A stretch of 64,000 nucleotides of DNA from Terriglobia bacterium (GCA_965206645.1 CBDBKE010000004.1:198738-262737), one strand, 5' to 3'. Shown: positions 1,765-25,315, numbered from the stretch's first letter. Notes: generated by a model not told the origin, from the letters alone. Translations and numbers: made by a program.

Positions 1765-1942
1765 ACGGTGGCGGGTGGGGGCCAGTCAAAGACTGCTCCA
1801 CAAACACATTCAGCCTTAGTTTCTAGCGGCCAGTGATTCTTCCTGAGCCCCATGGGCGCTTCAATCCTCTTTCCACTCCCTTTGCTGGCCGGGGGAAGAG
1901 TGCCTTAGGCGTCACCCGGTGAAGGGGCACAAGTAGCAGCGC

Positions 1943-2980
1943 ATGGCGGTACATTCAGCAGCAGCGATGCGGGAAGCCGACTTATACCCGGCGCTGAAGC
2001 GGCACTTCGAGAGCCTAGGCTGTGTCGTGTATGCGGAGGTGCCAGCTCCGCACGGGGGTTATGTGGACCTGCTGGCGGTGCGTGAGCCGGTGACTGTGGC
2101 TGTGGAGTTGAAGCCCTGGTTTTCGCGCGGGGCAGTTCGCCAGGCTGGGCGCAACAAGCGCTACGTTTGGGAATCCTACGTCGCAGTGCCGGAGGGCGCA
2201 CGGATTCCGCCCCGAAGGCGGGCGGTGCTGAAGCGGCACGGGGCAGGCTTGCTGCTGGTGAAAGTGGGGCCGGCGACGGATGCGGACTCCGGAGTGCGCA
2301 TGGGGATCGACGCCCGTCACCAGGCTCCAGCCTGCACAGTGCGAGAGGCCTTCGGATCACACCTGCGGGGGCAACTTGGGTTGGCTTACAGGGCGGCGGA
2401 GGGAGGTGTACCTACAAGCAAAAGAGTTAGTGCTTTCAATCTATTAGTGGGCGAGATTAAAGCATCGCTTGAAGATCACGGCGGCTGTGCCAACACCGAC
2501 CAGGTCCTGTCCGACACGCTTCCGTGGAATTACTTTCGCAGCCAGCGGGGTGGCTTGCAGTGGGTTCTGGCGCACAAGTTCCAGCCGCTGGGGCCTGACC
2601 TGTGGGAACTGAAAACAGACGCCGGAGGCCGCGCGGCAAAGCTCAATAGGCGGCGGCCAGTGGAGTACCCGCTGCCGCTCGAATCGCTGGTGCGCACACA
2701 CTTACCGGATACCTACGTCTGCCTGCCCCCACCCAACATCCGGCCCCTGCCGGGCGATTATCTAAGTCTCCGGAAGAACGGGCGACAGCTGCGGCGGTCG
2801 CGAATCGTCTCCGCCAAGCAGCACGCCATCGTGGAGACGCCGCACAGAGAACTGCGCGCCGGGCCAGCCGTCTTCTTTCCTTGGCGTTGTCCCCGGCCCT
2901 GGCGCTGTCCCCGGGAAATGGAGCTGCCGGAGAAAACTTTGGTCCTGCGCCTGATCCCGGACAAGGATCGAGCGCGGTAG
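1943..2980 (+). CDS. Putative PD-(D/E)XK nuclease-domain protein (DUF2161/MmcB-like N-terminus) with uncharacterised C-terminal region
   Basis: EADLYPALKRHF, then EV..VDLLAV..AVELK..Q..YVAVP, matches the E-D-ExK-Q restriction-like fold pattern. Confidence 0.6.
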   Translation: MAVHSAAAMREADLYPALKRHFESLGCVVYAEVPAPHGGYVDLLAVREPVTVAVELKPWFSRGAVRQAGRNKRYVWESYVAVPEGARIPPRRRAVLKRHGAGLLLVKVGPATDADSGVRMGIDARHQAPACTVREAFGSHLRGQLGLAYRAAEGGVPTSKRVSAFNLLVGEIKASLEDHGGCANTDQVLSDTLPWNYFRSQRGGLQWVLAHKFQPLGPDLWELKTDAGGRAAKLNRRRPVEYPLPLESLVRTHLPDTYVCLPPPNIRPLPGDYLSLRKNGRQLRRSRIVSAKQHAIVETPHRELRAGPAVFFPWRCPRPWRCPREMELPEKTLVLRLIPDKDRAR

Positions 2981-3054
2981 TGCTGGCAAGACGCTAAAAT
3001 GGTCATCAGAGGGTGCTGCTCAGGTCGCTTCCACTGAAGAGCAGAGATGAAACG

Positions 3055-3495
3055 ATGAGTGTCTTCGCGGAACAGATTCGAATCAGCGTTCCCAAAGAGG
3101 CAGTTTGGGATGCTCTGGCAGATATAGGGTCCATACACGAGTGGAACCCTGGAGTTGTTTCTTCTCGAAAGACAACGACTGGAGAAACCGGAGTAGGCTC
3201 AGGGCGACATTGTGAGCTAGGCGGAAAGAATTATCTCGATGAAAAGGTGGTTGAGTGGAGGCCAGGTGAAGAGTTGACAATGCGAATTGTCGGGACAAAC
3301 CTCCCGTTCAAGACAGCGGATATAAGATTCGTGCTCGAAGCCCAAGGCGAGGAGACAGCAGTCACCGTGTCGCCGAGATACACGCTCAAATTTGGTCCAT
3401 TGGGGAAGCTGCTCGATGCAGTCTTTGTACGGGCGTATTACAGGAGGGGAATGGTGAAGCTCCTACAGGGCCTGAAGCAGCATGTTGAAAGTTAG
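3055..3495 (+). CDS. SRPBCC (polyketide cyclase/dehydrase-like) family protein
   Basis: I.VPKEAVWDALADIGSIHEWNPGV N-terminus and C-terminal helix; about 146 aa from ATG 3055. Confidence 0.8.
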   Translation: MSVFAEQIRISVPKEAVWDALADIGSIHEWNPGVVSSRKTTTGETGVGSGRHCELGGKNYLDEKVVEWRPGEELTMRIVGTNLPFKTADIRFVLEAQGEETAVTVSPRYTLKFGPLGKLLDAVFVRAYYRRGMVKLLQGLKQHVES

Positions 3496-3600
3496 ATCTC
3501 CTGCTCCTGAATCTATGGCGGCGGTGGGGCTCCGGACAGGGACAAGAACAGGCGCCTGAATCCATCGGGCCGCGCTACAATAGGCCGACGGGGGAGCGCC

Positions 3601-3912
3601 ATGATCGAGGACATTGAACGGCGAGAACGGGGAAGGCGCCGACTGCGGGAAGCCGTAGCCGCTGAGTGGGAAGGCCGGCGCATCACCGGCGAGGCCACCG
3701 AATTGAGCCAGGACAGCATCTTCGTCGAAGCGGCTTCGCCGCCTCCGGCAGAAGCTGAGGTCCAGATCACTCTGGGTTCGGGCGCCGAAGCCATTCGTCT
3801 GTCCTGCCAGGTGCGGCGAATCACCGGCACCGGGTTTGCCGGCGAGTTTGAGATGCTGTCGGGGGAGCAGCGCGGAGCGCTGGGAAAGCTGCTGGCCCGG
3901 CTGCCCTACTAG
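3601..3912 (+). CDS. Stand-alone PilZ-like domain protein
   Basis: 103 aa with an Arg-rich N-terminus, degenerate ELSQDS in place of D/NxSxxG, LSCQVRR..GFAGEF and a terminal helix. Confidence 0.6.
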   Translation: MIEDIERRERGRRRLREAVAAEWEGRRITGEATELSQDSIFVEAASPPPAEAEVQITLGSGAEAIRLSCQVRRITGTGFAGEFEMLSGEQRGALGKLLARLPY

Positions 3913-3929
3913 CTGAGGAAGGGACTGAG

Positions 3930-5645
3930 ATGAGTGTATCTGTAGCGTTTATCGCGATTGCGCTTAGTCTGCTTGTCGGAGTCCTAGCCGGCGTCCTGCT
4001 CACTTGGATGCTCACTCGCAATCGCGTTCCCCCGTCCTTCCAAGAACGTTTGCAGGAGGCGGAGCTTAGCAGGGCAACGTCGGAGGCTTTTCTTACATCG
4101 CAGCGACAAATACTGCAAGAGAAGGAAAAATTGATAGCGGAAGCCCGCACTCAGCTATCCGCGGAGTTCAGTGAACACGCGACTCAGGCATTAAGAACCA
4201 GCAACGAAGCGTTTCTTGACCTTGCGACCCAAAAGTTCAGCACGCTCCGAGGAGAAGCGGAAGGAGACCTGAAGCAGCGCAAGACGGAGGTTGAGGCGCT
4301 CGTCAAACCGCTTGCCGAGGCGCTCACGAAGTACGAAACAAATCTGCGGACGATCGAAAGCGAGCGCCAAGAAGCTTACGGAGGCCTTCGGAATCTGCTT
4401 CAGGGAGTTGGCGAAACACAAGAGCAGCTGCGACGTGAAACGGCGAACTTGGTGACTGCTCTGCGGCGGCCTCATGTCCGGGGTCGCTGGGGAGAAATCA
4501 CCTTAAGGCGGGTAGCCGAACTGGCAGGGATGGCGGAGCATTGTGACTTCCAGGAACAGCCCACGATCGTAGGCGACGATGGCCGTTATCGTCCCGACAT
4601 GGTCGTGCATATGCCCGGCAATCTTAGCGTGCCCGTCGACTCCAAAGTACCGTTGGAAGCTTACCTTGAGGCCGTTGCGGTAACAACAGAGGAGGAAAGG
4701 AGCACACACCTGGATCGCCACGCGAGGCAAGTCCGCAGTCATATGGAGCGGCTTTCTTCGAAAGCCTACTGGAACCAGCTAGACTGCACCCCGGAGTTCA
4801 CGGTTATGTTCCTTCCTGGGGAGCCATTCTTTAGTGCCGCCGTCGATCGTGATCTTTCTCTGATGGAAGACGCAATTGAAAAGCGGGTGCTCATTGCGAC
4901 CCCGGTGACCCTGATCGCTCTTCTGAAAGCAGCCGCCTACGGATGGCGACAAGAAGCCGTCGCCCAGAACGCCCGCGAGATCAGCGAGGCGGGGAAGAAG
5001 GTTTACGAACGCGTTTCGATTCTTTGGGAGCACCTGAGCGAGTTGCGCTCAGCCCTGGATGACGCCGTAGGCGCATTTAACAAGACTAGGCGTTCCCTAG
5101 AGTCTCGGCTCCTCCCGAGTGTTCGCAGGTTCAAGGAATTGGGGGCAACTACCGCCGAAGAACTTGAGGAGATTCCACCAATAGATCAGGCGCTGGATTC
5201 CGTTGAGCCTCCGGCCGGGCAACCTCCGGTCGGGCAAAGAGAAGAGCCCCGAGGACCGGAAGTGGAATTGGGGGCGACCCTGGTGGCAGAAAAAAGGGTG
5301 GCAGAGAGCGCAGCGGAACAGATTCCGGAGACGGAACTACTGAAGCAGGCGTTGAATTTCGCTGAGCCTCCAGCCGTGCAGGAAGAAGAGGCCCGAGGAC
5401 CCGAAGTGGAATTGGGGACGACCATGGTGGCAGAGAGCGCCGCGGAAGAGATTGCAGAGACGGAACCAATAGGTGAAGTGCTGGGCTCGGTTGAGCTGCC
5501 AGCCGTGCAGGGAGTACAGGAGCGAGGATCCGAAAGGGGATGGGGGGCAACTATTGCAGAAGAGATTGCGGAGACGGATCCGCTAGATCAACTGCTGCGT
5601 GCGGCCCACCAGAGAGACCAAGAGCGCAGATCCCAAGTACATTAA
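3930..5645 (+). CDS. rmuC: DNA recombination protein RmuC with repetitive acidic C-terminal extension
   Basis: N-terminal TM helix and coiled coil; RGRWGEITL, RPDMVV, VDSKVPL, MFLPGE and ATPVTLIALLK motifs. Confidence 0.92.
   Translation: MSVSVAFIAIALSLLVGVLAGVLLTWMLTRNRVPPSFQERLQEAELSRATSEAFLTSQRQILQEKEKLIAEARTQLSAEFSEHATQALRTSNEAFLDLATQKFSTLRGEAEGDLKQRKTEVEALVKPLAEALTKYETNLRTIESERQEAYGGLRNLLQGVGETQEQLRRETANLVTALRRPHVRGRWGEITLRRVAELAGMAEHCDFQEQPTIVGDDGRYRPDMVVHMPGNLSVPVDSKVPLEAYLEAVAVTTEEERSTHLDRHARQVRSHMERLSSKAYWNQLDCTPEFTVMFLPGEPFFSAAVDRDLSLMEDAIEKRVLIATPVTLIALLKAAAYGWRQEAVAQNAREISEAGKKVYERVSILWEHLSELRSALDDAVGAFNKTRRSLESRLLPSVRRFKELGATTAEELEEIPPIDQALDSVEPPAGQPPVGQREEPRGPEVELGATLVAEKRVAESAAEQIPETELLKQALNFAEPPAVQEEEARGPEVELGTTMVAESAAEEIAETEPIGEVLGSVELPAVQGVQERGSERGWGATIAEEIAETDPLDQLLRAAHQRDQERRSQVH
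5168..5597 (+). repeat. Three degenerate in-frame tandem repeats in the rmuC tail
   Basis: The E(P/L)PA..RG(P/S)E..(L/W)G.T..AE.I.ETE/D unit recurs, anchored at 5205, 5364 and 5493 (periods 159 and 129 nt). Confidence 0.85.
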
Positions 5646-5654
5646 TTACGGCGT

Positions 5655-8600
5655 CTACGCGCTTTCCGCCTCGGCCTTGCCTGGCGGTATCGGCTTCTGC
5701 TGAGCCTCGTAAAGGCGCCGCCGCAGTTCCAACTCACTCCTCGCCACCCACTGAGAGCAGAGGGTCGCCAAGGTGGCGGACGCTTCTTCACGGGCCTGCT
5801 CAAGAATTCGCTCCAGGCTCTGCCGGAAGGCCACTTCCGCCTGGGCCACCTGGGCAGGGGTTTCCCGCAGCAGCATCTCATGGGCCTCGCGCACTCGCTC
5901 GATGGCGGTGCGGCTCAGCTGCTGCGTCTGATCGCGGAGCGGGACGGCCGCATCGGCCACGGCGTCCGTGAGCATCCGCGTCTGCTTCTGGCAAGCTTCC
6001 TCGTACTGCTGCGCCAGATGCTGCAAGCGCCGCTCGTAGTCGCGGCGGAGGGTTTCGACGGAGCGCTTGAGGCCTGCCACCCGGCTGCCGCCGGCCTGCT
6101 CCAGGCGTTTCTCTGCTTGCTCGAGGGTGCGGTCCAAGGAGGCGTGGATCCGCGCCTGGAAAACCTCCTGGGCAGCCTCGCCTACCGCTCCAATCTCTTG
6201 TTGACCCGCATTCAGCAGCTCTTTTAATTTCTGGTGGAGGCGAGTGGTGAGGGCTTCAGCGCGTCTGTCCAGCACAGCCTGCATTTCCTGATGTGCCTCG
6301 TCCAAGGCCGTGCGCGCGTCTTCCACCCGCCGCTCCACGGTGGCCACCGACAGCGCCAGTTCTGCTTTGGTCTGCTCCAGAGCGGAATAGAAGGAAATCA
6401 GGCTGGTGCGTTTATCCTCCAGAGCCGAGGAAAATCCGGCAAATTGCGCCTCCAGCCGCTGGTGCCTCTGCCGGGCCTGGTTTTCCATCTCGGCTCCCTC
6501 CCGCGTCATGGAGGCGCGTGTCTGCCGGATAGCGTCCAGAATTTCTCCTCCGGCAGTCGCAGCTTTTGCCTTACTGTCGGCGACCGCGCCCACAGCGTCC
6601 TGGGCTGCTTGCTTGACCGAGTGCTCGGTGTCCGCAGCATGCTGGGCTAGGTGCTCCACGCCTGCCTGCGCGCTGGCTTCCACTTCCTGACGCACCCGGT
6701 GCAGCCGCTGCGCATGAGCGGCCGCCACCGCTCCCAGCTCCTTGCAACGCTCTTCGGTGTGGCGATCCAGGGTCGAGGCCAGTTCGGCGATGCGCGGGAC
6801 GGCTTTCCCCATTTCTGCGGCCAGCGTCTGGCTGAATCTCTGCTGCGCATGGGCGGCGGCCTGTTCCAGCCCGGCTGAAAAGGCGTTGCGGAGGGATTCG
6901 AGCGGCCTCGCGGCGCGCTCCTGCAGCTCCTTTTCCAGCGCCATGGCGCCGGCCCGCAGTTTCTGCTCCAGCTCCAGCGTCCTGGATTTCAGTGACGCTT
7001 CTTGCCCGGCGGCGAAGCGCTCGATCTGCGCTTGGTTCTCCTCCGTGCAGGTCCGCAGGGAATCCATGTTGGCGCGCAAGTCGGCGCGGCCTTTTTCCAG
7101 GATTTCCAGGAGTCGGTCCAGGGCCCCCTTCCGCTGGTCATACCTGCTCGTCAGCGAACTGAACAGGGCGTCGAGTGCTTCCCGCTTTTGCTCGGCGCTC
7201 TGGTCCAGCGTGAGACGCATCTGCTGCACGTCGCGCGCCTGCCCACCGAGCTGGCGGGTGGCTTCAGCGGCACCGGCCTTGAGCGATTCGGCCTGCTGCT
7301 CGAGACGTTCGAACGCCTTCGCCGCAGCCTCTCCCAGTTCGCGGAGGTGGCGCGTGGCGGTCTCCTGTAACTGGATTTCGGCTTGGCCTGTCGTCGCCGA
7401 CAGCTTTTCCTGGGTGCTGGAAATTGCCCGTTCCGACCACTTCGCCAATTCTCGCAGGGAGGTACGTACCCGCGGCAGGCGTGCTTCGACCGCCGCGGCC
7501 TCGGCGGAGCCGGCCTCTTTGGCCTCCCGCGAGCGCTCCTGGAGCGACGTCTTGAACTGCTCCAACCCCTGCCCCGCGTGCTCGGCCAGCGTTGCCCGCG
7601 AGGCGTTTTGCAGCTCGGTGAAATTAGCCCGGGCAGTCTCCAGCGACTGGGCAATCCAGCGGGTGGCCGCGCTTTTCTGTTCGCCCAGCACCGAGGCGAA
7701 CGAGTGGGACGTCTCCTCGACGAGTTGTGGTGTCAGTGTTCGGAATTCCTCGATGCTGGCCAGGGACGCCCCATGCATTTCGCCGCGGCTTCTGTGGGTG
7801 ATCCGCTCCCCGTCCTGCCGCAGGCTGTTCAGACTGGCTGCCATCCGCTCGCGCCAGCTGGCGGACTGCGCTTCCAGTTCGGCCACCCCCCTCTGGTGCG
7901 CTTCCAAGCTGGCGGCCGACCTCGCCACGATTTCCTGGGCCTTGCTGCCTTCCTGTGCCAGCGTCTGTTGATATTTCTCTAGGGCCGCCTGCATTGCGGC
8001 CTCGAATTGCCGGGCCAGTTTCCCAATCTTTTCCTCCGTCCCGGCCGCCTGCCGGACCAAGGAGGCGCCGGCGCGTTCCTCCTGGGCGCGGATGACTTCC
8101 GCTGCGCCCCGCGCCTGGTCAGTAAGCTCCTCTCTTGCGATGTTCTTTCGGGCAGCCAGCAAGTCCAGTTGGGGCGCCAGCGCGCTAACCCCTTGCCGCC
8201 GTGCGACTTCCATCTGTTCGGCAAACTCCCGGAGCATCGTCTCGGCCTGTGCGCGAAGCGTTTCGCCTTTGCGCAGGACTCTCTCCAGCGATTCGTCCAG
8301 CGCATGAATGCGCTGGTGCACCGCGGCAGGTTCCTCGGCTGGCTTTCCGTCTTCCCCCGCCGGACCGTCCTTGTCTTGCCAGTCGGGAGGGAATTCGTGC
8401 TCCCAGTAACTTTCCTCCTCCACGAATCCCACTCCGAGCTGCCGTAGGCCAGGTTGGGAACACGACTTCACCGAAACCACCCGGGCCAGAGCAGGCTTGC
8501 CTCCGGACCGGCGGATGGCCAGTGGCGCACTGCGAGGAAACGGAGACCGAGCCGTAAGGCTGGCGCCATGCCGGCTGATGTCGCACGTAGAGGTGGATTC

Positions 8601-8714
8601 CACCAGAACTTTGCCGTCAGCGCCCCGACCCGCAATTTCCACCTCCACTACGCGGGCCAGACGCGGGCTGCGCCGGCGGTGGCCATTGGGCTTGCGGATG
8701 TCAGTAGCTCCCAT
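5655..8714 (-). CDS. PilZ domain fused to a very long coiled-coil region
   Basis: RRRSPR and DISRHG PilZ motifs in the first about 110 aa, followed by about 870 aa of A/E/Q/L/R-rich helical sequence. Confidence 0.75.
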   Translation of the reverse strand: MGATDIRKPNGHRRRSPRLARVVEVEIAGRGADGKVLVESTSTCDISRHGASLTARSPFPRSAPLAIRRSGGKPALARVVSVKSCSQPGLRQLGVGFVEEESYWEHEFPPDWQDKDGPAGEDGKPAEEPAAVHQRIHALDESLERVLRKGETLRAQAETMLREFAEQMEVARRQGVSALAPQLDLLAARKNIAREELTDQARGAAEVIRAQEERAGASLVRQAAGTEEKIGKLARQFEAAMQAALEKYQQTLAQEGSKAQEIVARSAASLEAHQRGVAELEAQSASWRERMAASLNSLRQDGERITHRSRGEMHGASLASIEEFRTLTPQLVEETSHSFASVLGEQKSAATRWIAQSLETARANFTELQNASRATLAEHAGQGLEQFKTSLQERSREAKEAGSAEAAAVEARLPRVRTSLRELAKWSERAISSTQEKLSATTGQAEIQLQETATRHLRELGEAAAKAFERLEQQAESLKAGAAEATRQLGGQARDVQQMRLTLDQSAEQKREALDALFSSLTSRYDQRKGALDRLLEILEKGRADLRANMDSLRTCTEENQAQIERFAAGQEASLKSRTLELEQKLRAGAMALEKELQERAARPLESLRNAFSAGLEQAAAHAQQRFSQTLAAEMGKAVPRIAELASTLDRHTEERCKELGAVAAAHAQRLHRVRQEVEASAQAGVEHLAQHAADTEHSVKQAAQDAVGAVADSKAKAATAGGEILDAIRQTRASMTREGAEMENQARQRHQRLEAQFAGFSSALEDKRTSLISFYSALEQTKAELALSVATVERRVEDARTALDEAHQEMQAVLDRRAEALTTRLHQKLKELLNAGQQEIGAVGEAAQEVFQARIHASLDRTLEQAEKRLEQAGGSRVAGLKRSVETLRRDYERRLQHLAQQYEEACQKQTRMLTDAVADAAVPLRDQTQQLSRTAIERVREAHEMLLRETPAQVAQAEVAFRQSLERILEQAREEASATLATLCSQWVARSELELRRRLYEAQQKPIPPGKAEAESA

Positions 8715-8852
8715 AAGCTGACAACTCAGCGTGCCGCACCGGCTCGCCCCGCTACAGGGCCGGGCCTTCTCGCAGCGCGCAATAAAGCTGGAATCAAGGG
8801 GTCCCTAAGGTATACGCGCCAGATGGAAAGGTCCAGCCTGTTCTAGGCCTGT

Positions 8853-9647
8853 CTAGGTTTGCGCTGAGGGCGCCAGGCGCTCTTCCAGAGCCCGCACCAG
8901 GTCGATCAGGAAAGGCCGCGCATCCAGTTGAGCGCGGAAGTATTCCAGCGCCTCGGCACAGGCGGCATCCGCATCCGGACGCAGCAGGCCACGCATGCGC
9001 TGGCATTGCAGGAAAATGAGATAGGTCAGGGCCACGTCGGCCATACAGTACTCGGCAATGCCGGCCAGGTTCCCCTGTTCGTATTCCCCTTCCACTTCGG
9101 CGCCGTCCATCTCGGTCTTGCCGGGTAGCCCGACCAGCTTGGCTACCGCGTCCAGGGAGGCTTTGGGCGCGGCTCCGAAGTTGGTGAGGAACTCGACAAT
9201 GTCGAAGTGGAACTCCGGCGCGTAGCGGTAGCGGTAATTGTTGAATTTGTCCCGCGCGGTGAAGTAATCAACTGAGCCCATCCCGTACCGCAGCGAGCGG
9301 TGCTCGATCACCGGCAGATCGAAGCTGCGCCCGTTAAAAGTGACCAACGCGCATTCGGGGCCCGGCACCGGCGGCGGGTTGCGCCGGCCGCCACCGTAAC
9401 GCTCGAACGTTTCCCAGAAAAATTGCAGGGTTTCGCGCTCCTTGTCCGGATCGCCGGACATGGCACCGAAACTGCGGATGCGCAGGTTCTCGTCGCAAAC
9501 CAGCCCGCCGATCACGATGGGGATGTGGAACAATGGATGCAGCAGCCGGTTTGATTGCTCCTTCACGCTGGCGTAGCTGTGGCCGTACACGGCCTCCACC
9601 AGGGGCTTGTCGGGATACGTCTCAATGTCGAAGATCAGGTAGTTCAT
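8853..9647 (-). CDS. 3'-5' exonuclease, PolB-like (DnaQ superfamily)
   Basis: ExoI FDIET, ExoII FNGRSFDLPVI and ExoIII YCMADV; start placed at ATG 9647. Confidence 0.85.
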   Translation of the reverse strand: MNYLIFDIETYPDKPLVEAVYGHSYASVKEQSNRLLHPLFHIPIVIGGLVCDENLRIRSFGAMSGDPDKERETLQFFWETFERYGGGRRNPPPVPGPECALVTFNGRSFDLPVIEHRSLRYGMGSVDYFTARDKFNNYRYRYAPEFHFDIVEFLTNFGAAPKASLDAVAKLVGLPGKTEMDGAEVEGEYEQGNLAGIAEYCMADVALTYLIFLQCQRMRGLLRPDADAACAEALEYFRAQLDARPFLIDLVRALEERLAPSAQT

Positions 9648-9778
9648 GAACGCGGCGCTTTGCACATAAGCATACCCGGGAAAGTGGGCGAGAGCAAAGG
9701 ATCCGGAGAGGACGCACCCGCCCACGCCACCACCGGGCCACCCCATCAAATGCAGCGCGGTGGCAGGGCGATCCGAGG

Positions 9779-10243
9779 CTAGGGATCCGCTCGCGTGGGT
9801 GGCGCGGCGGAGGCGCGGGAGTGCGGAGGCAATCCGTACTGCTCCAGTTTCTTCAGCGTCAGGGCATTCAGCTTTCCGGTCCGCCGCAGGTCCTGGGCCT
9901 GCTGAAAATCCGCCAGGGCGGCCACCGTATGAGAGTCGAGTTTACCGGTCAGCTTTCCGTCGTAATGACCGCTGCGGCTCAGCGACTGCTGGATTTCGCT
10001 GATACGCTGGGCTGTCGGCACTCTCTGGCCACGGACCACCCGTCGGCGCCGTCGGCGGCCACGGCGTCTCGGGGTTTTTCGCCGGGACCGCTTGTTCTGT
10101 GCAACCGCGGTTGTCTTGCTGCTGCTAGAAACCTTCTTCGCTGTGGAGGCTTTGGCCGGTGGGGCTGGCGAGGCTGAGGCAACGGCGGCCAGCACCAAAC
10201 CGGCTAGAATTGACGCGAAGTACCGGGAAGCTTTACCGGGCAT
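9779..10243 (-). CDS. Peptidoglycan-binding domain protein
   Basis: Signal peptide, basic linker, then IQQSL..GHYDGKLTGKLDSHTVAALADFQ..L..TGKL (PG_binding_1 pattern). Confidence 0.8.
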   Translation of the reverse strand: MPGKASRYFASILAGLVLAAVASASPAPPAKASTAKKVSSSSKTTAVAQNKRSRRKTPRRRGRRRRRRVVRGQRVPTAQRISEIQQSLSRSGHYDGKLTGKLDSHTVAALADFQQAQDLRRTGKLNALTLKKLEQYGLPPHSRASAAPPTRADP

Positions 10244-10337
10244 AGCGGCCAACCGCAACCTTGCGACGGCTCCCTTGTCCTGATCCGCCACGACGGCTGG
10301 CTATTCTCCTGCCCAAGCGGGAGGGTTCGAAAACCTC

Positions 10338-11903
10338 CTAGGGCAGTGTGCCTGCCAGGAAGAGGGTCTGCATTCGTCGGCGGAGTCCGCGGCGCAGTAT
10401 CTTGAAGACGACATCGTCTCCAGAGCTCAAACCACGCTGAATTCGGCGCAAATCCTCCACCGAGCGGACGGGCTCCCGCTGCAGTTCGACGATCAGGTCA
10501 CCGCGAAGCAAGCCCACGTCTCCGGCGAAGCTGCCTGGATCCAGCTTCGTCACCAGCACGCCTTCCTCGTCGCCGAGTCCCAGGCGGCTGGCCAGCCCCC
10601 TGGTGAGATTCTGCAGGGTCAGGCCGAACTTGGCCTCAGTGGGCTCTTCGGGCTGCAGCTCCTCCTCTTGCCCGCCCAATAATTCCTTGAAGACTTCAGT
10701 ACGCTCGGCGACGGTGATACTGGTCTTCGCTTTCTTGCCATCGCGGACGTACTTGATGCGAACTTTCTCGCCGACCGGAGTTTCGGAGATCTTGGAGACC
10801 AGTTCGTCGCCGGAGAGGATGGGGGTATCGTCCACGGCGACGATCACGTCGCCGGACTTCAGCCCACCCTGGTCGGCCGGGGAGCCAGGCATCACTTGAT
10901 TAATGATCACGCCGCCCTTGACGCCGAAACTGCGCAGCAAAGCTTCGTTTTCCGAGCTTCGGCCCTGGAACTCCACGCCGATGGAACCGCGCGGCACGCG
11001 GCCGTGTTCGATGATCTGGTTGTAGACGTAGACAGCCGTGTTGGAAGGCAAGGCGAAGCCCACGCCTTCGTAGCTGCCGCGGTTGGTGGCGATGGCCGTG
11101 TTCACTCCCACGACCTCACCGACCATGTTCACCAGCGGGCCTCCGCTGTTGCCGGGGTTGATGGCCGCGTCGGTCTGCAAGAAGTGCTGAAACTGTTGGG
11201 CACCAACCAGGTCGCGGTTTTTGGCGCTGATGATACCCGCCGTCACGGTCTCCTCCAGGCCGAAGGGGCTGCCAATTGCCAGTACCCAGTCGCCGACCTG
11301 GATGCCGTCGGAGTCACCCATCTTGGCTGGCGTCAGGGAGGTCTTGGAGTCGATCTTGATGACGGCCAGATCGGTCTCCTTGTCCGAGCCGATCACCTTG
11401 GCTTTGTACTGCTTGGGATCGTTGAACAATTTCACCTGGATGCGATCCGCCCTCTCGACGACGTGCCGATTGGTCAGGATATAGCCATTTCGGTCCACCA
11501 CGATCCCGGAGCCCAGGCTGCGCTGCTGAACGCCTCCTCCGGGTGCAGACGGCCCTTCAAAGAATCGTTCGAAGAACTCTTCGAATGGGTCCTGACGCTC
11601 GCGCTCCCGGGGGCTGCGACGGCGGCGGGGCGTCGGCTGTTTTACGGTGGCAGATGTGTTGATGTTGACCACCGTGGGCCGGACTGCCTTGGAAATCTGC
11701 ACAAAGGCCGAAGAGAGCTGAGCCGGGGACTGGATGGACAGGGGACTGGCCCCTGGCGCCACCGAGCGGTCCAGGGCGCCCACCGTTCGGGTTACGACGG
11801 TCCCAATTGCAATGCCCACGATCAGCGTCAACGAAACCAGGGCCAGTGAGACCCACTTTTGCCGGCGCAGTCCGGCTACCAGTTTGTCCAACCTGGAGTT
11901 CAT
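10338..11903 (-). CDS. degP: Do/DegQ (HtrA) family serine endoprotease with two PDZ domains
   Basis: Catalytic triad motifs TNRHVV, DLAVIK and GNSGG; QTDAAINPG; two PDZ repeats. Confidence 0.93.
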   Translation of the reverse strand: MNSRLDKLVAGLRRQKWVSLALVSLTLIVGIAIGTVVTRTVGALDRSVAPGASPLSIQSPAQLSSAFVQISKAVRPTVVNINTSATVKQPTPRRRRSPRERERQDPFEEFFERFFEGPSAPGGGVQQRSLGSGIVVDRNGYILTNRHVVERADRIQVKLFNDPKQYKAKVIGSDKETDLAVIKIDSKTSLTPAKMGDSDGIQVGDWVLAIGSPFGLEETVTAGIISAKNRDLVGAQQFQHFLQTDAAINPGNSGGPLVNMVGEVVGVNTAIATNRGSYEGVGFALPSNTAVYVYNQIIEHGRVPRGSIGVEFQGRSSENEALLRSFGVKGGVIINQVMPGSPADQGGLKSGDVIVAVDDTPILSGDELVSKISETPVGEKVRIKYVRDGKKAKTSITVAERTEVFKELLGGQEEELQPEEPTEAKFGLTLQNLTRGLASRLGLGDEEGVLVTKLDPGSFAGDVGLLRGDLIVELQREPVRSVEDLRRIQRGLSSGDDVVFKILRRGLRRRMQTLFLAGTLP

Positions 11904-11965
11904 CGAGGTGTACTCCTCATCAAGAAAAACACAGGCCTTACTCCAAGTGCATTATACCACTAGTT

Positions 11966-11998
11966 TAAAGATGCTCGGCGGAAGCCAATGGTTTCGCC
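11966..11998 (-). promoter_or_regulatory. Putative ECF-sigma promoter upstream of degP (copy A)
   Basis: Minus strand GAAACC-N16-CATCT; 30/33 identical to 14808-14840. Confidence 0.5.
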
Positions 11999-12037
11999 GC
12001 CACGCAATTCCCACACATTTCCCCTGCAGGGAACAGA

Positions 12038-12097
12038 CCCCGCCAGCGCGCACAAAGCCAGCAGGATACGCTGCAGCCCGAGTTGGCGACGAGCCGG
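12038..12097 (-). repeat. Relic copy of the M20 peptidase 3' end
   Basis: 57/60 nt identical to 14956-15015, which encodes PARRQLGLERILLALCALAG. Confidence 0.95.
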
Positions 12098-12121
12098 TGG
12101 AAAAGTCGTCATTCAGGGTTT

Positions 12122-14725
12122 TCATTCTACTCTCGAGGACGGAGACAATGGGGGTTCGCGCCTTGTGGGGTGCCTCCGGCTCTCCTCTCCCAATGAGAAG
12201 GAGAGCCGCTCGACTGCCGTGAATGTTTTTTCCGACTCCTTGATTTCCAGGAACTGGTTTACCCCGACGTTGTGGAACACCTGCCGCGTGTCGCTGGTGG
12301 GCCACCAGATTTCCAGGGTTTCGATGCTGGCCGCCTTGCCCAGCCCGATGTGCTGCTCCAGCGGGGAGGCGCCAAACGATCCGCCGCTGCCGACGAGGCG
12401 GTGAATGAAGCGGCGTCCACCCTCGGGCGTCTGCACGGCAAGCTTGATGCGGGCGCCGATGGCCCCGCGGTTCGTCTTCACGCCCACCAGCCGCAGACGG
12501 ATCCAGTTGTTGCCGTGCCCGGGGTTTCTGAAGAGCAAGTTCGCGTGCCTGTCGCCCGGCACCATGCCGCCCATCTGAATAAAAATGTCTTCATCGCCGT
12601 CGTTGTCGATGTCGACGAAGGCCGCCCCGTGCCCCTTATGAAGACAGCCGGTCCCCGAGGAAGTGGTGACATCCACGAAATACTTCCCGTCGTGATTCCT
12701 AAACAACATGTTTGGAACTAGCACTGCGTAAGAAGGACTGCCGGTCCCCAGGTAGAAATCGAGAAATCCGTCATTGTCCAGGTCGCCGAAATTGACCCCC
12801 ATGGGGTTAAACACGCGGTCCAGCCGAACCTCCTTGGTCACATCCTGGAAGCCCGACCCGGTGTTCCTGTAGAGCTTGAGCGTCTCGACCTCCCCCGGCA
12901 ATTGCAAGTAACTGCGGACGATGTCCACGATTGAGCCATAGGTACTGGAAACGAACAGGTCCAGCCAGCCGTCGTTGTCATAGTCGAAGAACCAGGCCGG
13001 AAAGCTGAAAATGGGTCGTTGCACTCCCAAAGGTTTGGCCATGTCGGTAAACGTTAAATCCCGGTTGTTGTGGTAGAGGAAGTTCTCCGCAGACACGTTT
13101 GAGACGTAGAAGTCCGGGTAGCCGTCGTTGTCGTAGTCGCCCGCAACGACGGCTTTGGTGAACATGACCCGGTCCACGCCGGCGGCGGGCGCAATGTCCA
13201 CGAAGGTCCCGTCGCCCTGGTTGAGGAACAGCTGGCTGGGCGAGTGCTCGTTGCCCACGAACAGGTCCAGGTTGCCGTCCAGATCAATGTCGGCCCAGGC
13301 AGCGGTTTGCGTGGCGCTGGCGGGCACCGCCACCCCACTCGGGCGGGTCACGTCGGTGAAGGTTCCGTCGCAGTTGTTGCGCAGTAGCGAGTTGCGCATA
13401 GGGAGTTCCCATGCGCCCCGGAGCACCAGAATATCCAGGCAGCCGTCATTGTTGTAGTCAGCCGAGACCATGTTCAGCCCGCCAAGCTGATTGATCAGCC
13501 CGGCCTGCGCGGTTCGGTCGGTGAAGGTTCCGGTCCCGCTGTTGTGCAAGTAGCGCATCGGCGCGCAAGGGTCCATTGAGCTGGTCACAATGTCCAGCAG
13601 TCCGTCATTGTCCAGATCATCCACAATCGCTCCGCCGGCCGAGTTGAAGGTGTCGGCACCCACCAGAGGGGCCACGTCAACAAAGCGGCCCACGTCTTCC
13701 TTCGACTCAAAGGGGGCAAGAGGAATCCGGTATTGCCGGGGAACAGCCTCGGGGTACTTTCCCAGAGCCATGGAGGCAAGGTTCAGCAACCACCTCACCT
13801 CCAGGTCTTCCGGCTTTTGCTCCAAGAACTTGAGAAAATGCCGGATGGCGGCCTCCCAATTCGCCATCTGCTCCGGCTGCGCCCCGCCAAGCATCGGAAA
13901 CATGCAGGTCTTGGCATGTGCGCTGGGTACCAGGTTCTCAACCTCTGCCAATCGCAGGCGGGCAATCCCCAGCTTCTCCTCCAATTCCAGCAGCACCTGC
14001 TTGTCGCCGCGGGCGACAGCATGTTCGTACGCCGCTTGGAGATACTTGATCGTTTGATCTAAATCTCCACGGTGTGCCCACTGCTGAGCCAGCGTCTGAT
14101 AGACACCCAAGAGTCCAGCGTCGCCTACGTTCCTCGCGCTTCCGTTCTTGGCCTCTGCCAAATACTTTTCCAACTCTTGAAATCCGATGCGAACCGCCAT
14201 GATCTTGATCGCGCAGATGGTTTGCAAATCCTGTTCCCAGCCGACTGGCTTCTGGATGCGGTCAAACAGGTATTGAACTTCTCCAGCTCCCGAGACGTCG
14301 GTGGTCAGTCGGCGCTCCGGGGCGCGCTGCGCGCTCTCGATTTCGGGTCTCTCCGCTTCCTCTTTAAGCACCTTCAGGATCATGTAGCCGCCCGACGTTT
14401 CGACAACCCCGGACACCTGTCCTGCAGCTAGCCCCTTCAAGGCCTCCTGAATTTCGGGGCGTAAATCCGACAGCTTCACTTTGCCTAGATAGCCGCCCGC
14501 TGGCCCGGTGGAATCGATCGAGTGCTTTTTCGCCAGCTCGGCGAAGTCCTCCCCGCGCTGAAGGTTCGCCAGAACCTGCCGCGCCTCTTCGGAGGTGCGC
14601 AGCAGAATCATCCGCACAGCAACTTCCAGGGGCTGTTTCTGCTCGCTCGCCCAGAAGACGGACTCGATCAACAGGAAAGCAATGCCCAGCACGACCACGG
14701 CCGGGTACAGCTTGATTGCTTTCAT
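12122..14725 (-). CDS. PpiC rotamase + TPR-like + FG-GAP/VCBS + ASPIC/UnbV (CRTAC1 family) protein
   Basis: GEDFAELAKKHSID..GGYLG (parvulin), multiple DxDNDGxxD repeats, and NNWIRLRLVGVKTNRGAIGARI..SGGSFG..GLG (ASPIC/UnbV). Confidence 0.88.
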   Translation of the reverse strand: MKAIKLYPAVVVLGIAFLLIESVFWASEQKQPLEVAVRMILLRTSEEARQVLANLQRGEDFAELAKKHSIDSTGPAGGYLGKVKLSDLRPEIQEALKGLAAGQVSGVVETSGGYMILKVLKEEAERPEIESAQRAPERRLTTDVSGAGEVQYLFDRIQKPVGWEQDLQTICAIKIMAVRIGFQELEKYLAEAKNGSARNVGDAGLLGVYQTLAQQWAHRGDLDQTIKYLQAAYEHAVARGDKQVLLELEEKLGIARLRLAEVENLVPSAHAKTCMFPMLGGAQPEQMANWEAAIRHFLKFLEQKPEDLEVRWLLNLASMALGKYPEAVPRQYRIPLAPFESKEDVGRFVDVAPLVGADTFNSAGGAIVDDLDNDGLLDIVTSSMDPCAPMRYLHNSGTGTFTDRTAQAGLINQLGGLNMVSADYNNDGCLDILVLRGAWELPMRNSLLRNNCDGTFTDVTRPSGVAVPASATQTAAWADIDLDGNLDLFVGNEHSPSQLFLNQGDGTFVDIAPAAGVDRVMFTKAVVAGDYDNDGYPDFYVSNVSAENFLYHNNRDLTFTDMAKPLGVQRPIFSFPAWFFDYDNDGWLDLFVSSTYGSIVDIVRSYLQLPGEVETLKLYRNTGSGFQDVTKEVRLDRVFNPMGVNFGDLDNDGFLDFYLGTGSPSYAVLVPNMLFRNHDGKYFVDVTTSSGTGCLHKGHGAAFVDIDNDGDEDIFIQMGGMVPGDRHANLLFRNPGHGNNWIRLRLVGVKTNRGAIGARIKLAVQTPEGGRRFIHRLVGSGGSFGASPLEQHIGLGKAASIETLEIWWPTSDTRQVFHNVGVNQFLEIKESEKTFTAVERLSFSLGEESRRHPTRREPPLSPSSRVE

Positions 14726-14807
14726 GATATCGGTCCCACCTTTTGCTTGCGGCTGCCGGATGCCATCTCAGGCTTCCGCCCCCACAAGGCAGGGTGCGCA
14801 CGTCCCG

Positions 14808-14840
14808 TAAAGATGCTCAACGGAAACCAATGGTTTCGCC
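14808..14840 (-). promoter_or_regulatory. Putative ECF-sigma promoter upstream of the CRTAC1 gene (copy B)
   Basis: Minus strand GAAACC-N16-CATCT, about 80 nt upstream of ATG 14725. Confidence 0.5.
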
Positions 14841-14943
14841 TCCCCCGAAATCGGTGCGCATCCGCCCCCTTCCGGGACTGGACGCTGATTGGGTGCAGAG
14901 CGAGCAGGGCCAAACACAGGAGGCAGTAAGCGGAAGGCAGTGG

Positions 14944-16176
14944 CTAGCTGTCCACCCCCGCCAGCGCGCACAAAGCCAGCAGGATGCGCTCAAGCCCGAG
15001 TTGGCGACGAGCCGGGTCGTACCATTCCTGCGGAGAGTGGGTCGCGCCCCCTTGGCCGCCCCCACCCAGGGAAACTGCCTCGATGCCCAGCGCCAATGGA
15101 ATATTCGCGTCGGTAGAGGAGCGCTCGACACGCGAGGGGATCCCCAGATAGCGGTCCACTGCCCGCACCGTTTCCAGGATGCGAGCGTTCTGCGGCAGCT
15201 CGGCCGCGGGGCGTTCGCCAATATCCTGAACCTGATAGGTGAGCCTGCCACCCTGCGCGCGCTGGTTCTCCTCTTCCACCACCTCCCGGACTACGCGTTC
15301 CAAAATGGCCGCCAGCCGCCGGATCTCTTCCACCGAACCGGAACGGATGTCCACCTTGATGAAGGCGAAGGAGGGTACCGAGTTGACGCTGGTGCCCCCT
15401 TGGATTTCACCGACGTTAAAGGTAGTGCGCGGCTGCTTGGGGACGGAAATTTGGGCGAAGCGGGCCACCGCTGATCCCAGGGCGTAGATGGGGTTTGCCA
15501 GGCCGAAGTCACTCCAGCTATGCCCGCCGGGGCCCTCAACGGTGACGCGGAAGCGCTGGCTGCCCAGGCCGGAGGTGGTGATGTGATCCACGCTGGCTCC
15601 GTCCAACACCAGAACAGCACGCGCTTGCCGGCAGATCTCTTTCTGCTCAAGCAAGTGGCGCATGCCGTGCAGATTGCCTTCTCCTTCCTCGCCAACGTTG
15701 GCCACCAACAGCAAATGATCGCGCAGGCGCAGGTTTGCGCGGCGCAGGACGTGCGCCACGCCCAGCAGCGCCGCCAAGCCGGCACCGTTGTCGGTGATTC
15801 CTGGACCGTAGATGCGCCCGTTGTGGCGGTGGACCTCGATTCGATCCGATAGCCGGAAAACCGTATCCAGGTGGGCGCTCAGCACCAACAAGCGCCGTTG
15901 CCGCGCCGGCGCGGTGCCTCGCAGTTTGCCCAACACGTTGCCGGCAGCATCGCGCCGCACGCAGTCTAGTTTCAGTTTGCTGAACTGCTGGAAGAAGTAA
16001 TCGGCCCGAGCCTGTTCCGCAAAGGTGGGCGCCGGGATCGAGGTGAATTCGACATGCCGGTCAGTAATCCAGTCCGCCTCTTGCGCGATCAACTCCAGCG
16101 CCCGAGCTACCATTGCGCGGCGCGCCAGCACCTCTATCGTCTCGGTTGTCGGAGCGGCAGTGGAGCTTGCCAGCAT
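14944..16176 (-). CDS. M20/M25/M40 family metallo-hydrolase (peptidase)
   Basis: SAHLDTVF, GPGITDNGAG, GEEGEG, GPGGHSW and STDAN motifs. Confidence 0.9.
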   Translation of the reverse strand: MLASSTAAPTTETIEVLARRAMVARALELIAQEADWITDRHVEFTSIPAPTFAEQARADYFFQQFSKLKLDCVRRDAAGNVLGKLRGTAPARQRRLLVLSAHLDTVFRLSDRIEVHRHNGRIYGPGITDNGAGLAALLGVAHVLRRANLRLRDHLLLVANVGEEGEGNLHGMRHLLEQKEICRQARAVLVLDGASVDHITTSGLGSQRFRVTVEGPGGHSWSDFGLANPIYALGSAVARFAQISVPKQPRTTFNVGEIQGGTSVNSVPSFAFIKVDIRSGSVEEIRRLAAILERVVREVVEEENQRAQGGRLTYQVQDIGERPAAELPQNARILETVRAVDRYLGIPSRVERSSTDANIPLALGIEAVSLGGGGQGGATHSPQEWYDPARRQLGLERILLALCALAGVDS

Positions 16177-23544: not shown

Positions 23545-24005
23545 CGAGTGGGCTGTGCCCGGAGGCGCGCGAGCGGGAAGTTATCTCTGGACACCGTGCG
23601 CAGAAAGCGGGGCGGGTGAAACACCAGCCAAAGCCCGAGCAGCGCGGCGGCCAGATTCATCGCCACGTCGTACACCGCCGGATGGCGAAACACAGAAAAT
23701 AACTGGATCGTCTCGGAGGCCAGCGCGACACTGGCGCAACAGAAAACAGCGAGGCGGCGAGCGTCTCGGGCCACTTTTCTGAATGGAATCGTACTCAGCC
23801 CCAGCAAGAAAAAGGCCACGACATGATTGCTCTTGCGAAAAACGGTGTGCCCGAAGAGGGTGAGGTCGTCCTCGACGTCGACCGGCTTCCCCAAAAGTGA
23901 TTCCACCATGGCCACATAAGCGCTGTCTCCAGTGACGAAGTCGGTCGAGTACACCAGGATGACGACGCTCAGCACTGCAAAAGCGGCCCAGCTTCCCGCG
24001 TGCAT
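23541..24005 (-). CDS. VanZ family membrane protein
   Basis: RKSNHVVAFFLLG and SETIQLF..RHPAVYDVAMN motifs; hydrophobic helices. Confidence 0.8.
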   Translation of the reverse strand: MHAGSWAAFAVLSVVILVYSTDFVTGDSAYVAMVESLLGKPVDVEDDLTLFGHTVFRKSNHVVAFFLLGLSTIPFRKVARDARRLAVFCCASVALASETIQLFSVFRHPAVYDVAMNLAAALLGLWLVFHPPRFLRTVSRDNFPLARLRAQPTR

Positions 24006-24198
24006 AACAGCCTTGAGTTAGGCACTTCGCTAGCCAATTGCCGCCGCCGTGACATGCTTGCAACTCTTTGAAAATTCGTGCAAGACCAGGGCGTTGTTAG
24101 ACAGGATCATTCCTAAATGGGAAATTAGTTGTATTTTGGAACGCTACGCCCCCGCGCTGGCTACAAATGGGGGGTGCGAATAGGGCCTGTTGGGCGGG
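23970..24198. repeat. Direct repeat R1 (decayed DUF72 3' end + intergenic + intact vanZ 5' end)
   Basis: Aligns with 25087-25315; identical blocks of 35 nt (24007-24041) and 30 nt (24107-24136). Confidence 0.95.
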
Positions 24199-24201
24199 AA
24201 G

Positions 24202-24236
24202 CTCGGAGGCCAGCGCGACACTGGCGCAGCAGAAAA
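24202..24236. repeat. 35-nt copy of an internal vanZ segment
   Basis: 34/35 identical to 23712-23746. Confidence 0.93.
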
Positions 24237-24488
24237 AAGGAGAGTCTTCCAACAAAATTGAAACGAGGCTTGAACCTCAATGAGGCACTATCGCCATCAA
24301 GTGGAACGGCTGGAGGAGGAGGATGGCAGCGTACTACGAGACAGCTAGGTATTTAGCTCGCAGCAGCAAACCGAGCGCAGGGCTCGGCAGTTGATGGAGG
24401 AGGGCAGCTAGGCATGGGTCATCGCCCTGCCCGCCAATGGTTGCGATGGGCGGTAACTCTATCTATCGTGGCACATGGCAACGCCTTT

Positions 24489-25086: not shown

Positions 25087-25315
25087 CAGCACCGCAAAGG
25101 CAGCCCAGCTTCCCCGCGCAAGACAGCCTTGAGTTAGGCACTTCGCTAGCCAATTGCTCTCGCTCTGGCGCGCTTGCAACTCTTTGAAAACTGGTTCGAG
25201 ACCAAGCCGTGGTCAGACAGAGTCATTCCTAAATGGGAAATTAGTTGTATTTCGGAACGCTACGGCCCCGCGACGGCTACAAAGGGGGGGCTGCGAATAG
25301 GGCCTGTTGAGCGGG
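25087..25315. repeat. Direct repeat R2 (intact DUF72 3' end + intergenic + decayed vanZ 5' end)
   Basis: Aligns with 23970-24198. Confidence 0.95.

Follow-up and report, generated by a model that had tools for sequence, protein, structure and literature searches.

Very probable recombinase-independent, duplicative insertion of a chromosomal gene copy at a peptidase-degP junction in a soil acidobacterium

The window, a 64,000-nt stretch of a Terriglobia genome (a soil acidobacterium), carries on its minus strand an M20 peptidase gene, a gene for a PPIase/FG-GAP/ASPIC protein and degP, transcribed in that order; all features described below lie on this strand. The peptidase gene (14944-16176) belongs to the M20/M28 family (Pfam Peptidase_M20, M28 and M20_dimer), and its synteny with truA is kept in orthologs. 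The degP/htrA-type serine protease gene (10338-11903) encodes a Trypsin_2 domain and two PDZ domains. Between them, a gene annotated as 'CRTAC1/ASPIC' (12122-14725) encodes an 867-aa protein with an N-terminal membrane anchor, a PpiC-type PPIase domain, FG-GAP/VCBS repeats and a C-terminal UnbV/ASPIC domain (Pfam), an architecture that is common across the Acidobacteriota.

The first-pass annotation had proposed that this middle gene sits between duplicated copies of the peptidase 3’ end and of a promoter motif. Both repeats were recovered: a 60-nt repeat at 12038-12097 and 14956-15015 (57/60 identical), and a 33-nt motif at 11966-11998 and 14808-14840 (30/33), which extends to 45 nt at 82% identity. 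Their order and their spacers of 39 and 115 nt agree with what had been described. The 60-nt repeat had been read as the last 20 codons of the peptidase gene; it does originate there, but it corresponds to codons -23 to -4. The final three codons and the stop codon (14944-14955) are missing from the window’s second copy and are present in the second copy of two related contigs, L045 and L046. A genome search found both motifs at this locus alone in the 4.4-Mb genome, and we rejected a dispersed repeat family, which the first-pass annotation had named as a finding that would count against its reading.

Comparison with relatives showed that the two motifs are the leftovers, after later deletion, of what was originally one continuous 240-nt stretch. 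In L045 (9038-9277) and L046 (9041-9280), two independent long-read contigs, the second copy is undeleted over its full 240 nt. The window’s copy A (14808-15015) is 208 nt long (241 nt in the related genome G001) and comprises the peptidase 3’ end (R1a, 14956-15015), the stop codon, a spacer and the motif R2a (14808-14840); the 3’-terminal 72 nt of the peptidase gene form part of the duplicated target. Copy B is a 132-nt remnant (11966-12097) in which R1b (12038-12097), which repeats the peptidase 3’ end as non-coding sequence, is followed by an internal deletion of ~100 nt, the distal spacer and R2b (11966-12010). The target site is a junction of two protein genes, and no tRNA is involved.

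Between the two copies lie a 35-nt filler and a block copied from elsewhere on the chromosome. The filler (14773-14807) forms the boundary between copy A and the block; it is kept in G001, G002, L045 and L046, and a genome search found no second copy of it. The block spans 2,675 nt (12098-14772) and matches, with sharp ends and at 93% identity (blastn), a paralogous locus (C4:1468773-1471381) that lies 1.26 Mb away on the same chromosome. It is composed of seven nucleotides, CCTGAGA (14766-14772), a 40-nt leader with a ribosome binding site, the coding sequence and a 24-nt tail. The encoded protein is 90% identical in amino acids to its paralog in the same genome. At the paralogous locus the gene order is a 149-aa ORF, the PPIase-FG-GAP-ASPIC gene and gspF, and CCTGAGA is the stop-codon context of the upstream ORF, as seen in the empty donor site of the related genome G003. 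Because the block carries 7 nt of that locus’s native flank, the paralogous locus is the donor. A target duplication was sought at the donor locus and none was found; the recipient site alone has one, and the donor was retained alongside the new copy. The first-pass annotation was thus right that a gene of ~2.6 kb had been added by duplication of the junction, and we can now specify that the gene is a copy of a same-chromosome paralog. A transcript-derived retro-copy, suggested by a single gene with a short leader and tail, found no support: the hairpin in the donor-side tail is weak by eye. We noted in the same connection that the block starts inside the stop codon of the upstream ORF.

The ancestral order had been predicted to be peptidase-degP, and the genomes of relatives bear this out. 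We found both genes adjacent, with a single copy of each motif, in G003, L037, L038-L040, L041, L042 and L048, and every genome with the three-gene order carries the duplicates, variably eroded. The filled loci form one clade (support 97/99) with L048 as its sister, which indicates a single gain. A reverse history, with an ancestral three-gene order and loss of the gene from the ‘empty’ relatives by homologous recombination between the direct repeats, is highly improbable. Recombination between 240-nt repeats would recreate the empty site exactly, and a single empty genome (for example L048) could be such a revertant, but the site is empty in at least five successive outgroup lineages, against one clade of filled loci, and nucleotides from the flank of another locus are part of the block. 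Farther relatives have an EamA transporter gene, rather than the cargo gene, between peptidase and degP. The 6-8% divergence of the repeats, moreover, fits the age of the paralog and not an older state: in L045 and L046 copies A and B are 93% identical and the paralog block 92-93%, and the paralog dS of 0.13 compares with ortholog dS values of 0.09-0.13. Omega for the cargo gene is 0.26-0.40, and on this measure both gene copies are evidently under purifying selection.

The structure recurs in independent assemblies: L049 and L050 (99.7% identity), G001, and L045 and L046. The deletions in the second copy differ between lineages, the window and L049 sharing one state and G001 having another. 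The distal spacer of copy A contains a cluster of derived changes (‘A-type’) that is common to the window and G001 and is not seen in L045 or L046; no other copy of this patch exists in the genome. An exact-pattern scan for the 33-nt motif gave no matches in metagenome contigs, and in genome contigs it matched G001 and G002 only. In G002, a short-read MAG (JAKZXP010000044), the gene is joined to the peptidase side at one end and to the downstream side of the donor locus at the other, probably through a chimera or an inversion; on looking for the reciprocal junction we found degP to be absent from this 62%-complete MAG. This join speaks for a reading in which a metagenome assembly joined or collapsed two paralogs. 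Applied to the locus as a whole, however, such an artefact has a negligible chance of being the explanation, given that the structure is seen in five or more independent assemblies, made from different samples, that the copies differ by 5-18%, and that each lineage has its own deletions, in keeping with the phylogeny.

The region has a mosaic ancestry: truA-M20 is nearer to L048, the junction and degP are slightly nearer to L037, and the ancestry switches ~150-300 nt upstream of the duplication. R1b reads CTGCAG, as in L037, and R1a reads CTCGAG or CTTGAG, as in L048. These observations favor a model in which two lineages supplied the junction copies, joined either through homology-facilitated illegitimate recombination (HFIR), where one flank is a foreign allele that serves as the homologous anchor and the other joint is illegitimate, or through Campbell-type integration of an imported circle; with the help of host RecA, a circle excised by recombination between the repeats could also bring the insert to empty sites. 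We nevertheless consider this origin improbable. The two copies share their nearest allele, an L037-like one (for L045, identity to L037 is 97% for copy A and 93% for copy B; identity to L048 is 93% and 88%), and this is not the pattern that defines HFIR, and the cargo was copied, flank included, from the genome’s own paralog. The two-lineage model accounts for spread and not for origin, because two illegitimate joints would still be required.

Two observations speak for a decayed mobile element, be it a transposon, an integrative islet or a cassette, that lost its recombinase or is served by one in trans: the genome is rich in insertion sequences, one IS30-family element having at least 19 copies, and the cargo gene occurs in three different contexts within the genus. 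Yet the three copy events use three different boundary pairs, and thus there is no element with fixed ends. By ORF listing and Pfam, the cargo gene is the sole ORF of the inserted block, which holds no transposase, integrase or recombinase, in agreement with what had been noted at the outset for the insert. The block ends lack terminal inverted repeats and an att-like core. The 240-nt duplication is far above the transposase range, in which known target duplications are shorter than ~30 bp (PMC2853133). The locus therefore resembles neither a DNA transposon or insertion sequence nor a site-specific integrative element, and we regard a mobile-element origin as extremely improbable.

These results support the first-pass annotation as a real observation whose interpretation was largely right, and they lead us to a specific model: very probably, a chromosomal gene copy was inserted duplicatively, and independently of a recombinase, at the peptidase-degP junction. 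In the ancestor of the species group, peptidase and degP would have lain ~225 nt apart. One event would then have introduced 2.67 kb copied from the paralog, the 35-nt filler and a 240-nt direct target duplication extending from peptidase codon -23 to the end of the 33-nt motif, the copy landing 6 nt upstream of the degP -10 element. Afterwards, the redundant copies would have been eroded in each lineage by different deletions. Within this model the donor, the direction of copying, the empty site, the complete duplication, a single origin and purifying selection on the two gene copies are shown by the data; the mechanism is inferred.

The same genome contains events of similar dimensions. From the 4.4-Mb genome we collected local direct repeats that are unique, exceed 100 nt and have copies with an identity of 85% or more; 4/5 repeats in this set are 229-241 nt long. 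Besides the present locus (240 nt), they comprise a DUF72-vanZ insertion in the same window (229-230 nt; filler copied from a site 490 nt distant), an insertion that hit the promoter and 5’ end of queE (236 nt; ~80-nt dispersed repeat at the filler position) and a near-tandem duplication (237 nt; filler equal to the final 53 nt of an IS30-family element). Fillers of 35-53 nt adjoin one copy in three of the four events, which differ in age (copies 86% to ~99% identical).

The insertion is best attributed to replication or break repair. The most likely route would be serial template switching during replication or break-induced repair, in which the nascent strand quits the junction, copies the short filler and then the donor, and re-enters 240 nt behind its departure point. 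The short fillers of the sister events have nearby sequence or an IS end as their template, as expected under template switching. As the main alternative, a double-strand break with a 240-nt stagger would have had its overhangs filled in, and Ku-dependent end joining would then have captured a free donor fragment; the genome does encode Ku. The 0-1 nt of microhomology visible at the block ends is low for microhomology-mediated template switching, though 6-8% divergence since the event blurs this signal. Neither template switching nor a staggered break accounts for the common length of 229-241 nt in four events. It is conceivable, although we think it rather unlikely, that insertions recur in this lineage by a pathway that needs no recombinase and measures out ~235 nt with a built-in ruler. 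If so, a stagger of constant length would suggest a defined molecular cause, for instance a stalled or reversed fork of fixed geometry or a novel nicking complex, and would differ from the ‘long and variable’ duplications published so far. Recurrence of the ~235-nt length in more genomes would provide a handle on the mechanism.

The 33-nt repeat had been called a promoter motif. It does belong to the region upstream of the degP promoter, but it is not the whole promoter: the conserved extended -10 element of degP, TGGTATAAT (11951-11959, as read from the sequence), lies 6 nt outside the duplication and is present in a single copy. TATAAT upstream of degP is kept across the order. A sigma-70 scan found no full -35/-10 pair, and Rfam, terminator and sigma-70 scans of 11700-15200 returned nothing on the gene strand. 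Judged by its motifs, the 33-nt region may hold a candidate ECF-sigma-type promoter, GAAAC-N17-CATC, and GAAAC-N17-C(A/G)TC is kept across the genus with a variable spacer. An ECF promoter is characterized by a GAAC/AAC-type -35 and a CGT/C-type -10 element spaced by 16-17 nt, together with further regulon members or an autoregulated sigma gene; our test for a regulon found no convincing second site in the genome, and the one look-alike (C3:716435) is intragenic. A likely consequence of the insertion is that the new gene copy was placed behind a duplicate of the region upstream of the degP promoter. By supplying this sequence, the duplication would offer a simple way of regulating the new copy together with an envelope-stress protease.

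The placement of new gene copies at unlinked sites by bacteria, without a mobile element, is rare and poorly understood. The event described here fits the class in which an insertion is accompanied by a long target duplication (Nobusato et al. 2000, Gene 259:99; Furuta, Abe & Kobayashi 2010, PMC2853133; Lim et al. 2012, PMC3457768), which has been known since 2000 from end products only, mostly with restriction-modification cargo. At the present locus every stage is seen in wild genomes: the donor, with an empty donor site in a relative; the empty recipient site; a pristine product with its 240-nt duplication intact; and two independently eroded products.

As in that class, a gene-sized insert lacking transposase and integrase is flanked by unique direct repeats longer than 30 bp that occur once in empty-site relatives, with no mobility gene or tRNA target. 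Published duplications of 46-423 bp cover a similar size range, and in one published case 270-nt duplicates surround a 21-nt filler of unknown origin (PMC2853133, PMC3457768). Lengths in the class are described as ‘long and variable’, in contrast to the 229-241 nt of the four events in this genome. Published cargo consists mostly of foreign restriction-modification systems, a usual though not strictly defining feature, and a nuclease role has been proposed for it. Here an envelope-protein gene from the same chromosome was copied as cargo, with an identified donor, a filler and no nuclease. Since this is an ordinary, housekeeping-type gene, a cargo-encoded nuclease is not required.

Template switching of the FoSTeS/MMBIR type (Gu et al. 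2016, PMC5120786; stress-induced amplification in E. coli, PMC3161906) shares with this locus a donor that is copied rather than moved and retained, short fillers at the joints (templated, in our genome, at the sister events), a duplication at the return point and independence of any element-encoded enzyme. It differs in having been described mainly from human and yeast genomes and E. coli amplifications (PMC5120786, PMC3161906), and its junction microhomology is usually 2-5 nt, compared with the 0-1 nt now visible in this ancient, fixed event. Ku/LigD capture at double-strand breaks (Dupuy et al. 2019, PMC6379672) likewise yields homology-free insertions, sometimes of tandem fragments; those captures involved clean I-SceI breaks and small deletions, whereas the 240-nt duplication requires that a staggered break be assumed. 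In the non-transposon gene transposition of Arabidopsis (Woodhouse et al. 2010, PMC2869330), ordinary genes are moved or copied to unlinked sites and are flanked by direct repeats that are single in the orthologous target site, as here. That system is eukaryotic, its proposed route is through circles from tandem arrays followed by homologous insertion, and its repeats are often chimeras of donor and target, unlike the target-derived duplication at the peptidase-degP junction.

The window, which is C4:198738-262737 in a genome of four contigs, carries three consecutive genes on its minus strand. They encode an M20/M28 peptidase (16176..14944); a protein of 867 aa that combines a PpiC-type PPIase domain and FG-GAP/VCBS repeats with a UnbV/ASPIC domain at its C-terminus (14725..12122); and a DegP/HtrA protease (11903..10338). 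The first-pass annotation had described a 60-nt repeat and a 33-nt motif as duplicated on either side of the middle gene, and a repeat finder recovered both, the former at 12038-12097 and 14956-15015 (95% identity) and the latter at 11966-12010 and 14808-14852 (82% identity across 45 nt, 30/33 in the first 33 nt). A gapped alignment bore out the claimed order, shared by both sides, and the spacer lengths of 39 and 115 nt, and a search of the whole 4.4-Mb assembly restricted both repeats to this locus, so that they are no dispersed family. In the direction of the genes, the peptidase end leads into junction copy A (15015-14808). A 35-nt filler (14773-14807), with no other match anywhere in the genome, separates this first copy of the motif from the 5’ end of a 2,675-nt copied block (14772..12098), which begins 47 nt ahead of the ATG and extends 24 nt beyond the stop. 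Junction copy B (12097-11966) follows, then AACTAG and TGGTATAAT, then degP. The 3’ end of the block joins the repeated peptidase 3’ end without a gap, at 12098/12097, and TGGTATAAT, which is conserved upstream of degP, lies outside the duplicated stretch.

A 25-nt distant match in the whole-assembly repeat search pointed us to another copy of the gene at C4:1468820-1471354, at a distance of 1.26 Mb and on the other strand, whose protein is 90% identical. DNA homology is a single block with sharp ends (window 14772..12098 against C4:1468773..1471381; 93% identity). In G003, a genome of the same genus, this donor site is empty: a 149-aa ORF is followed 106 nt on by gspF, and the sequence reads ...CCGTCCTGAGA|CACC.... 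The donor locus of the window genome reads ...GCGTCCTGAGA|TGGCATCC..., and the block at the peptidase-degP site starts CCTGAGATGGCATCC. Set against the empty donor site, this start places 7 nt of the donor’s native flank, the stop codon of the upstream ORF, within the block. A target duplication was sought at the donor locus and none was found. Donor flank inside the block and a donor without target duplication together indicate that the donor-locus copy is the earlier one and served as template. The one gene copy of G003 sits in a third context, with homology confined to the coding region. At the donor locus, 42 nt separate the upstream ORF from the start of the gene, which explains why the block has no obvious promoter; terminator prediction in the peptidase-gene and gene-degP gaps returned none.

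Ancestral adjacency of peptidase and degP, also proposed in the first-pass annotation, is borne out by empty sites. The G003 peptidase-degP gap is 140 nt and holds a single peptidase 3’ end and a single motif, then directly TCTAGTGGTATAAT. Homolog look-ups in long metagenome contigs yielded further empty sites, in L038-L040 (G003-like), L041 and L042, and in two close relatives, L037 and L048, whose gaps measure 223 and 231 nt; the L048 contig is circular, at 4.93 Mb. From CCGGCTCG (peptidase codon -23) to GAGCATCTTTA (motif end), L037 has 233 nt and L048 has 241 nt. Were the three-gene order ancestral instead, and the gene lost from the empty genomes, at least five independent exact deletions would be required, and the donor flank within the block would be left unexplained. 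Among more distant relatives, the same gap contains an EamA-family transporter gene (L020/G004 2142-3359; L023/G009 4550-6805; L024/G007 6478-10192), together with a 381-aa FG-GAP-like protein in G009 and a lysyl-tRNA-synthetase-like gene in G007; these differing contents indicate that the junction is variable across the order.

Copy B is shortened both in the window and in the same-genus genome G001, by different deletions: the window retains the peptidase end but not the stop codon or proximal spacer, whereas G001 retains the proximal spacer but not the peptidase end. These differences predict that the second copy was once complete in an ancestor. The long-read contigs L045 (ERZ21829562) and L046 (ERZ25074053), which are independent of each other, do carry an uninterrupted 240-nt second copy, in the order gene stop, 15-nt tail (ATAACAACTTTCCCA), peptidase end, GTGGACAGCTAG, whole spacer, motif, AACTAGTGGTATAAT, degP. 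Their copies A and B are 93% identical over the shared length, and the block is 92-93% identical to the donor; this matching divergence implies that the duplication and the gene copy are of the same age, and that the copies in the window became unevenly similar only later. In the distal spacer of the window’s copy A (14841-14900), ~50 nt differ by ~40% from the ancestral spacer, while the flanks differ by only 5-9%. The derived patch is common to the window, metagenome contig L049 and G001, and absent from L045/L046 and every empty site, which carry the spacer type of copy B. The rest of the genome yielded no template for it, and either small-scale templated patching or rapid regulatory change may have produced it. 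The 33-nt motif itself has the form GAAAC-N17-C(A/G)TC and is conserved through the genus, with a variable spacer. It resembles an ECF-sigma promoter and is hypothetically a candidate for one; in E. coli, degP counts among the classic ECF targets. A search of the genome for a second GAAAC-N17-C(A/G)TC site found no convincing one, as the single look-alike (C3:716435) is intragenic.

An assembly artefact is ruled out by at least five independent assemblies. In G002, a short-read MAG of the same genus (L044, JAKZXP010000044.1), the peptidase and gene are joined to gspF of the donor locus, whereas the long-read L045/L046, with an identical peptidase, run on into degP. Up to a point about 500 nt (alignment columns) short of the gene end, the G002 contig matches L045 at 100%; small differences follow over the last ~500 columns, and just past the gene stop it departs to the donor’s downstream side. 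This join probably reflects either a contig that is chimeric between paralogs or a genuine inversion of 1.26 Mb between the inverted copies.

In a maximum-likelihood tree of truA, peptidase and degP, the filled loci (window, L049, L050, G001 and G002/L045/L046) formed one clade with 97/99 support, with L048, L037, the G003 group, L041 and L042 as successive outgroups; this indicates that the gene was gained once. Ancestry around the insertion site is mosaic, but both local topologies keep the filled loci monophyletic. The switch falls within the peptidase gene (window about 15150-15300): upstream, in truA and most of the peptidase, the window genome is nearest L048, and downstream, at the junction and degP, L048 and L037 are nearer each other than the window genome. 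The pattern points to a putative recombination breakpoint 150-300 nt from the insertion. An origin from two lineages by homology-facilitated illegitimate recombination is unsupported, as both junction copies are nearest the same L037-like allele. The dS is 0.13 between the two paralogs, 0.126 between window and G001 orthologs and 0.09 between window and G002 orthologs; omega of 0.26-0.40 in all comparisons indicates purifying selection on both gene copies. In L045 (6286-9022) and L046 (6286-9025), independent assemblies with the same break, the inserted copy was called as two pieces, of 774 and 123 aa, a split suggestive of a frameshift and of the beginnings of pseudogenisation in that lineage.

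A genome-wide self-comparison returned only 16 unique two-copy local direct repeats. Five were >100 nt and at least 85% identical; four of these five, the 240-nt ancestral duplication at the peptidase-degP locus among them, measure 229-241 nt and differ in age, and the fifth (488 nt; C4:446604 and 465478) has a length unrelated to the others. One pair (229-230 nt, ~86% identical) lies in the window at 23970-24198 and 25087-25315 and encloses ~0.9 kb with one small ORF lacking a Pfam match. Beside its first repeat, a 38-nt filler (24202-24239) is a copy of 23712-23749, 490 nt away; we read this as a second insertion, its architecture being that of the peptidase-degP locus. Another pair (236 nt, 90% identical; C1:53994 and 57066) duplicates the queE promoter with the first ~45 codons on either side of 2.84 kb of ordinary genes (region L051, C1:52500-58500: copy 1 1495-1730, cargo 1731-4566, copy 2 4567-4801). 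Read from sequence, this cargo comprises OMP-like, small HMA-like and TlpA-like thioredoxin genes with no recombinase, and opens with an ~80-nt dispersed repeat; the site is empty in G003 and has one repeat copy in G001 and G002. The left edge of the queE duplication (L051 4567-4606) is a ~40-nt sequence with many ~90% identical copies in all four genus genomes, possibly a REP-like element. The 237-nt pair (C4:703274 and 703564) is near-tandem, its copies nearly identical save for a 13-nt indel (region L052, C4:702800-704300: copies 475-711 and 765-988, separator 712-764) and parted by nothing more than the final 53 nt of an IS30-family element, of which the genome has at least 19 full copies.

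A decayed mobile element is an unlikely source of the insertion: inverted repeats, att core and recombinase are all absent, and a 240-nt duplication is far above known transposase output (PMC2853133). In G001 the gene is duplicated in tandem at the donor locus (L031, C10:1433000-1452000, about 6800-12063), which gives that genome three copies, and the tandem boundaries are unlike those of the dispersed copy. With the third context in G003, the copy events number three, each with its own boundary pair, which argues against an element with defined ends. The product instead requires two illegitimate joints and a 240-nt overlap. We tentatively favor serial template switching, in which the nascent strand would depart after ...CATCTTTA, copy 35 nt from some site and then 2.67 kb from the donor, and come back 240 nt behind its departure point. 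Such switching would give exactly the observed structure and leave the donor intact, and the short fillers at the sister events (from 490 nt away; an IS end) are as it predicts. Possible, and rated behind it, is a staggered break whose overhangs were filled in, with a free donor fragment captured via Ku. Ku is encoded in the genome, and work in Sinorhizobium has demonstrated that breaks can capture fragments (PMC6379672). The block joints have almost no microhomology, which leans to end joining, a reading weakened by divergence. Some other mechanism would be less probable than either.

The event fits the class termed insertion with long target duplication, defined, as cited in PMC2853133, by Helicobacter genome comparisons (Nobusato et al. 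2000). Members have since been recognised across several phyla; their duplications span 46-423 bp and mostly surround restriction-modification genes, and the mechanism is unknown (PMC2853133); one published case has a 21-nt filler between 270-nt duplicates (PMC3457768). The peptidase-degP locus differs from this class in that its cargo is an ordinary gene, its donor is identified in the same genome, and the full series of stages is preserved.
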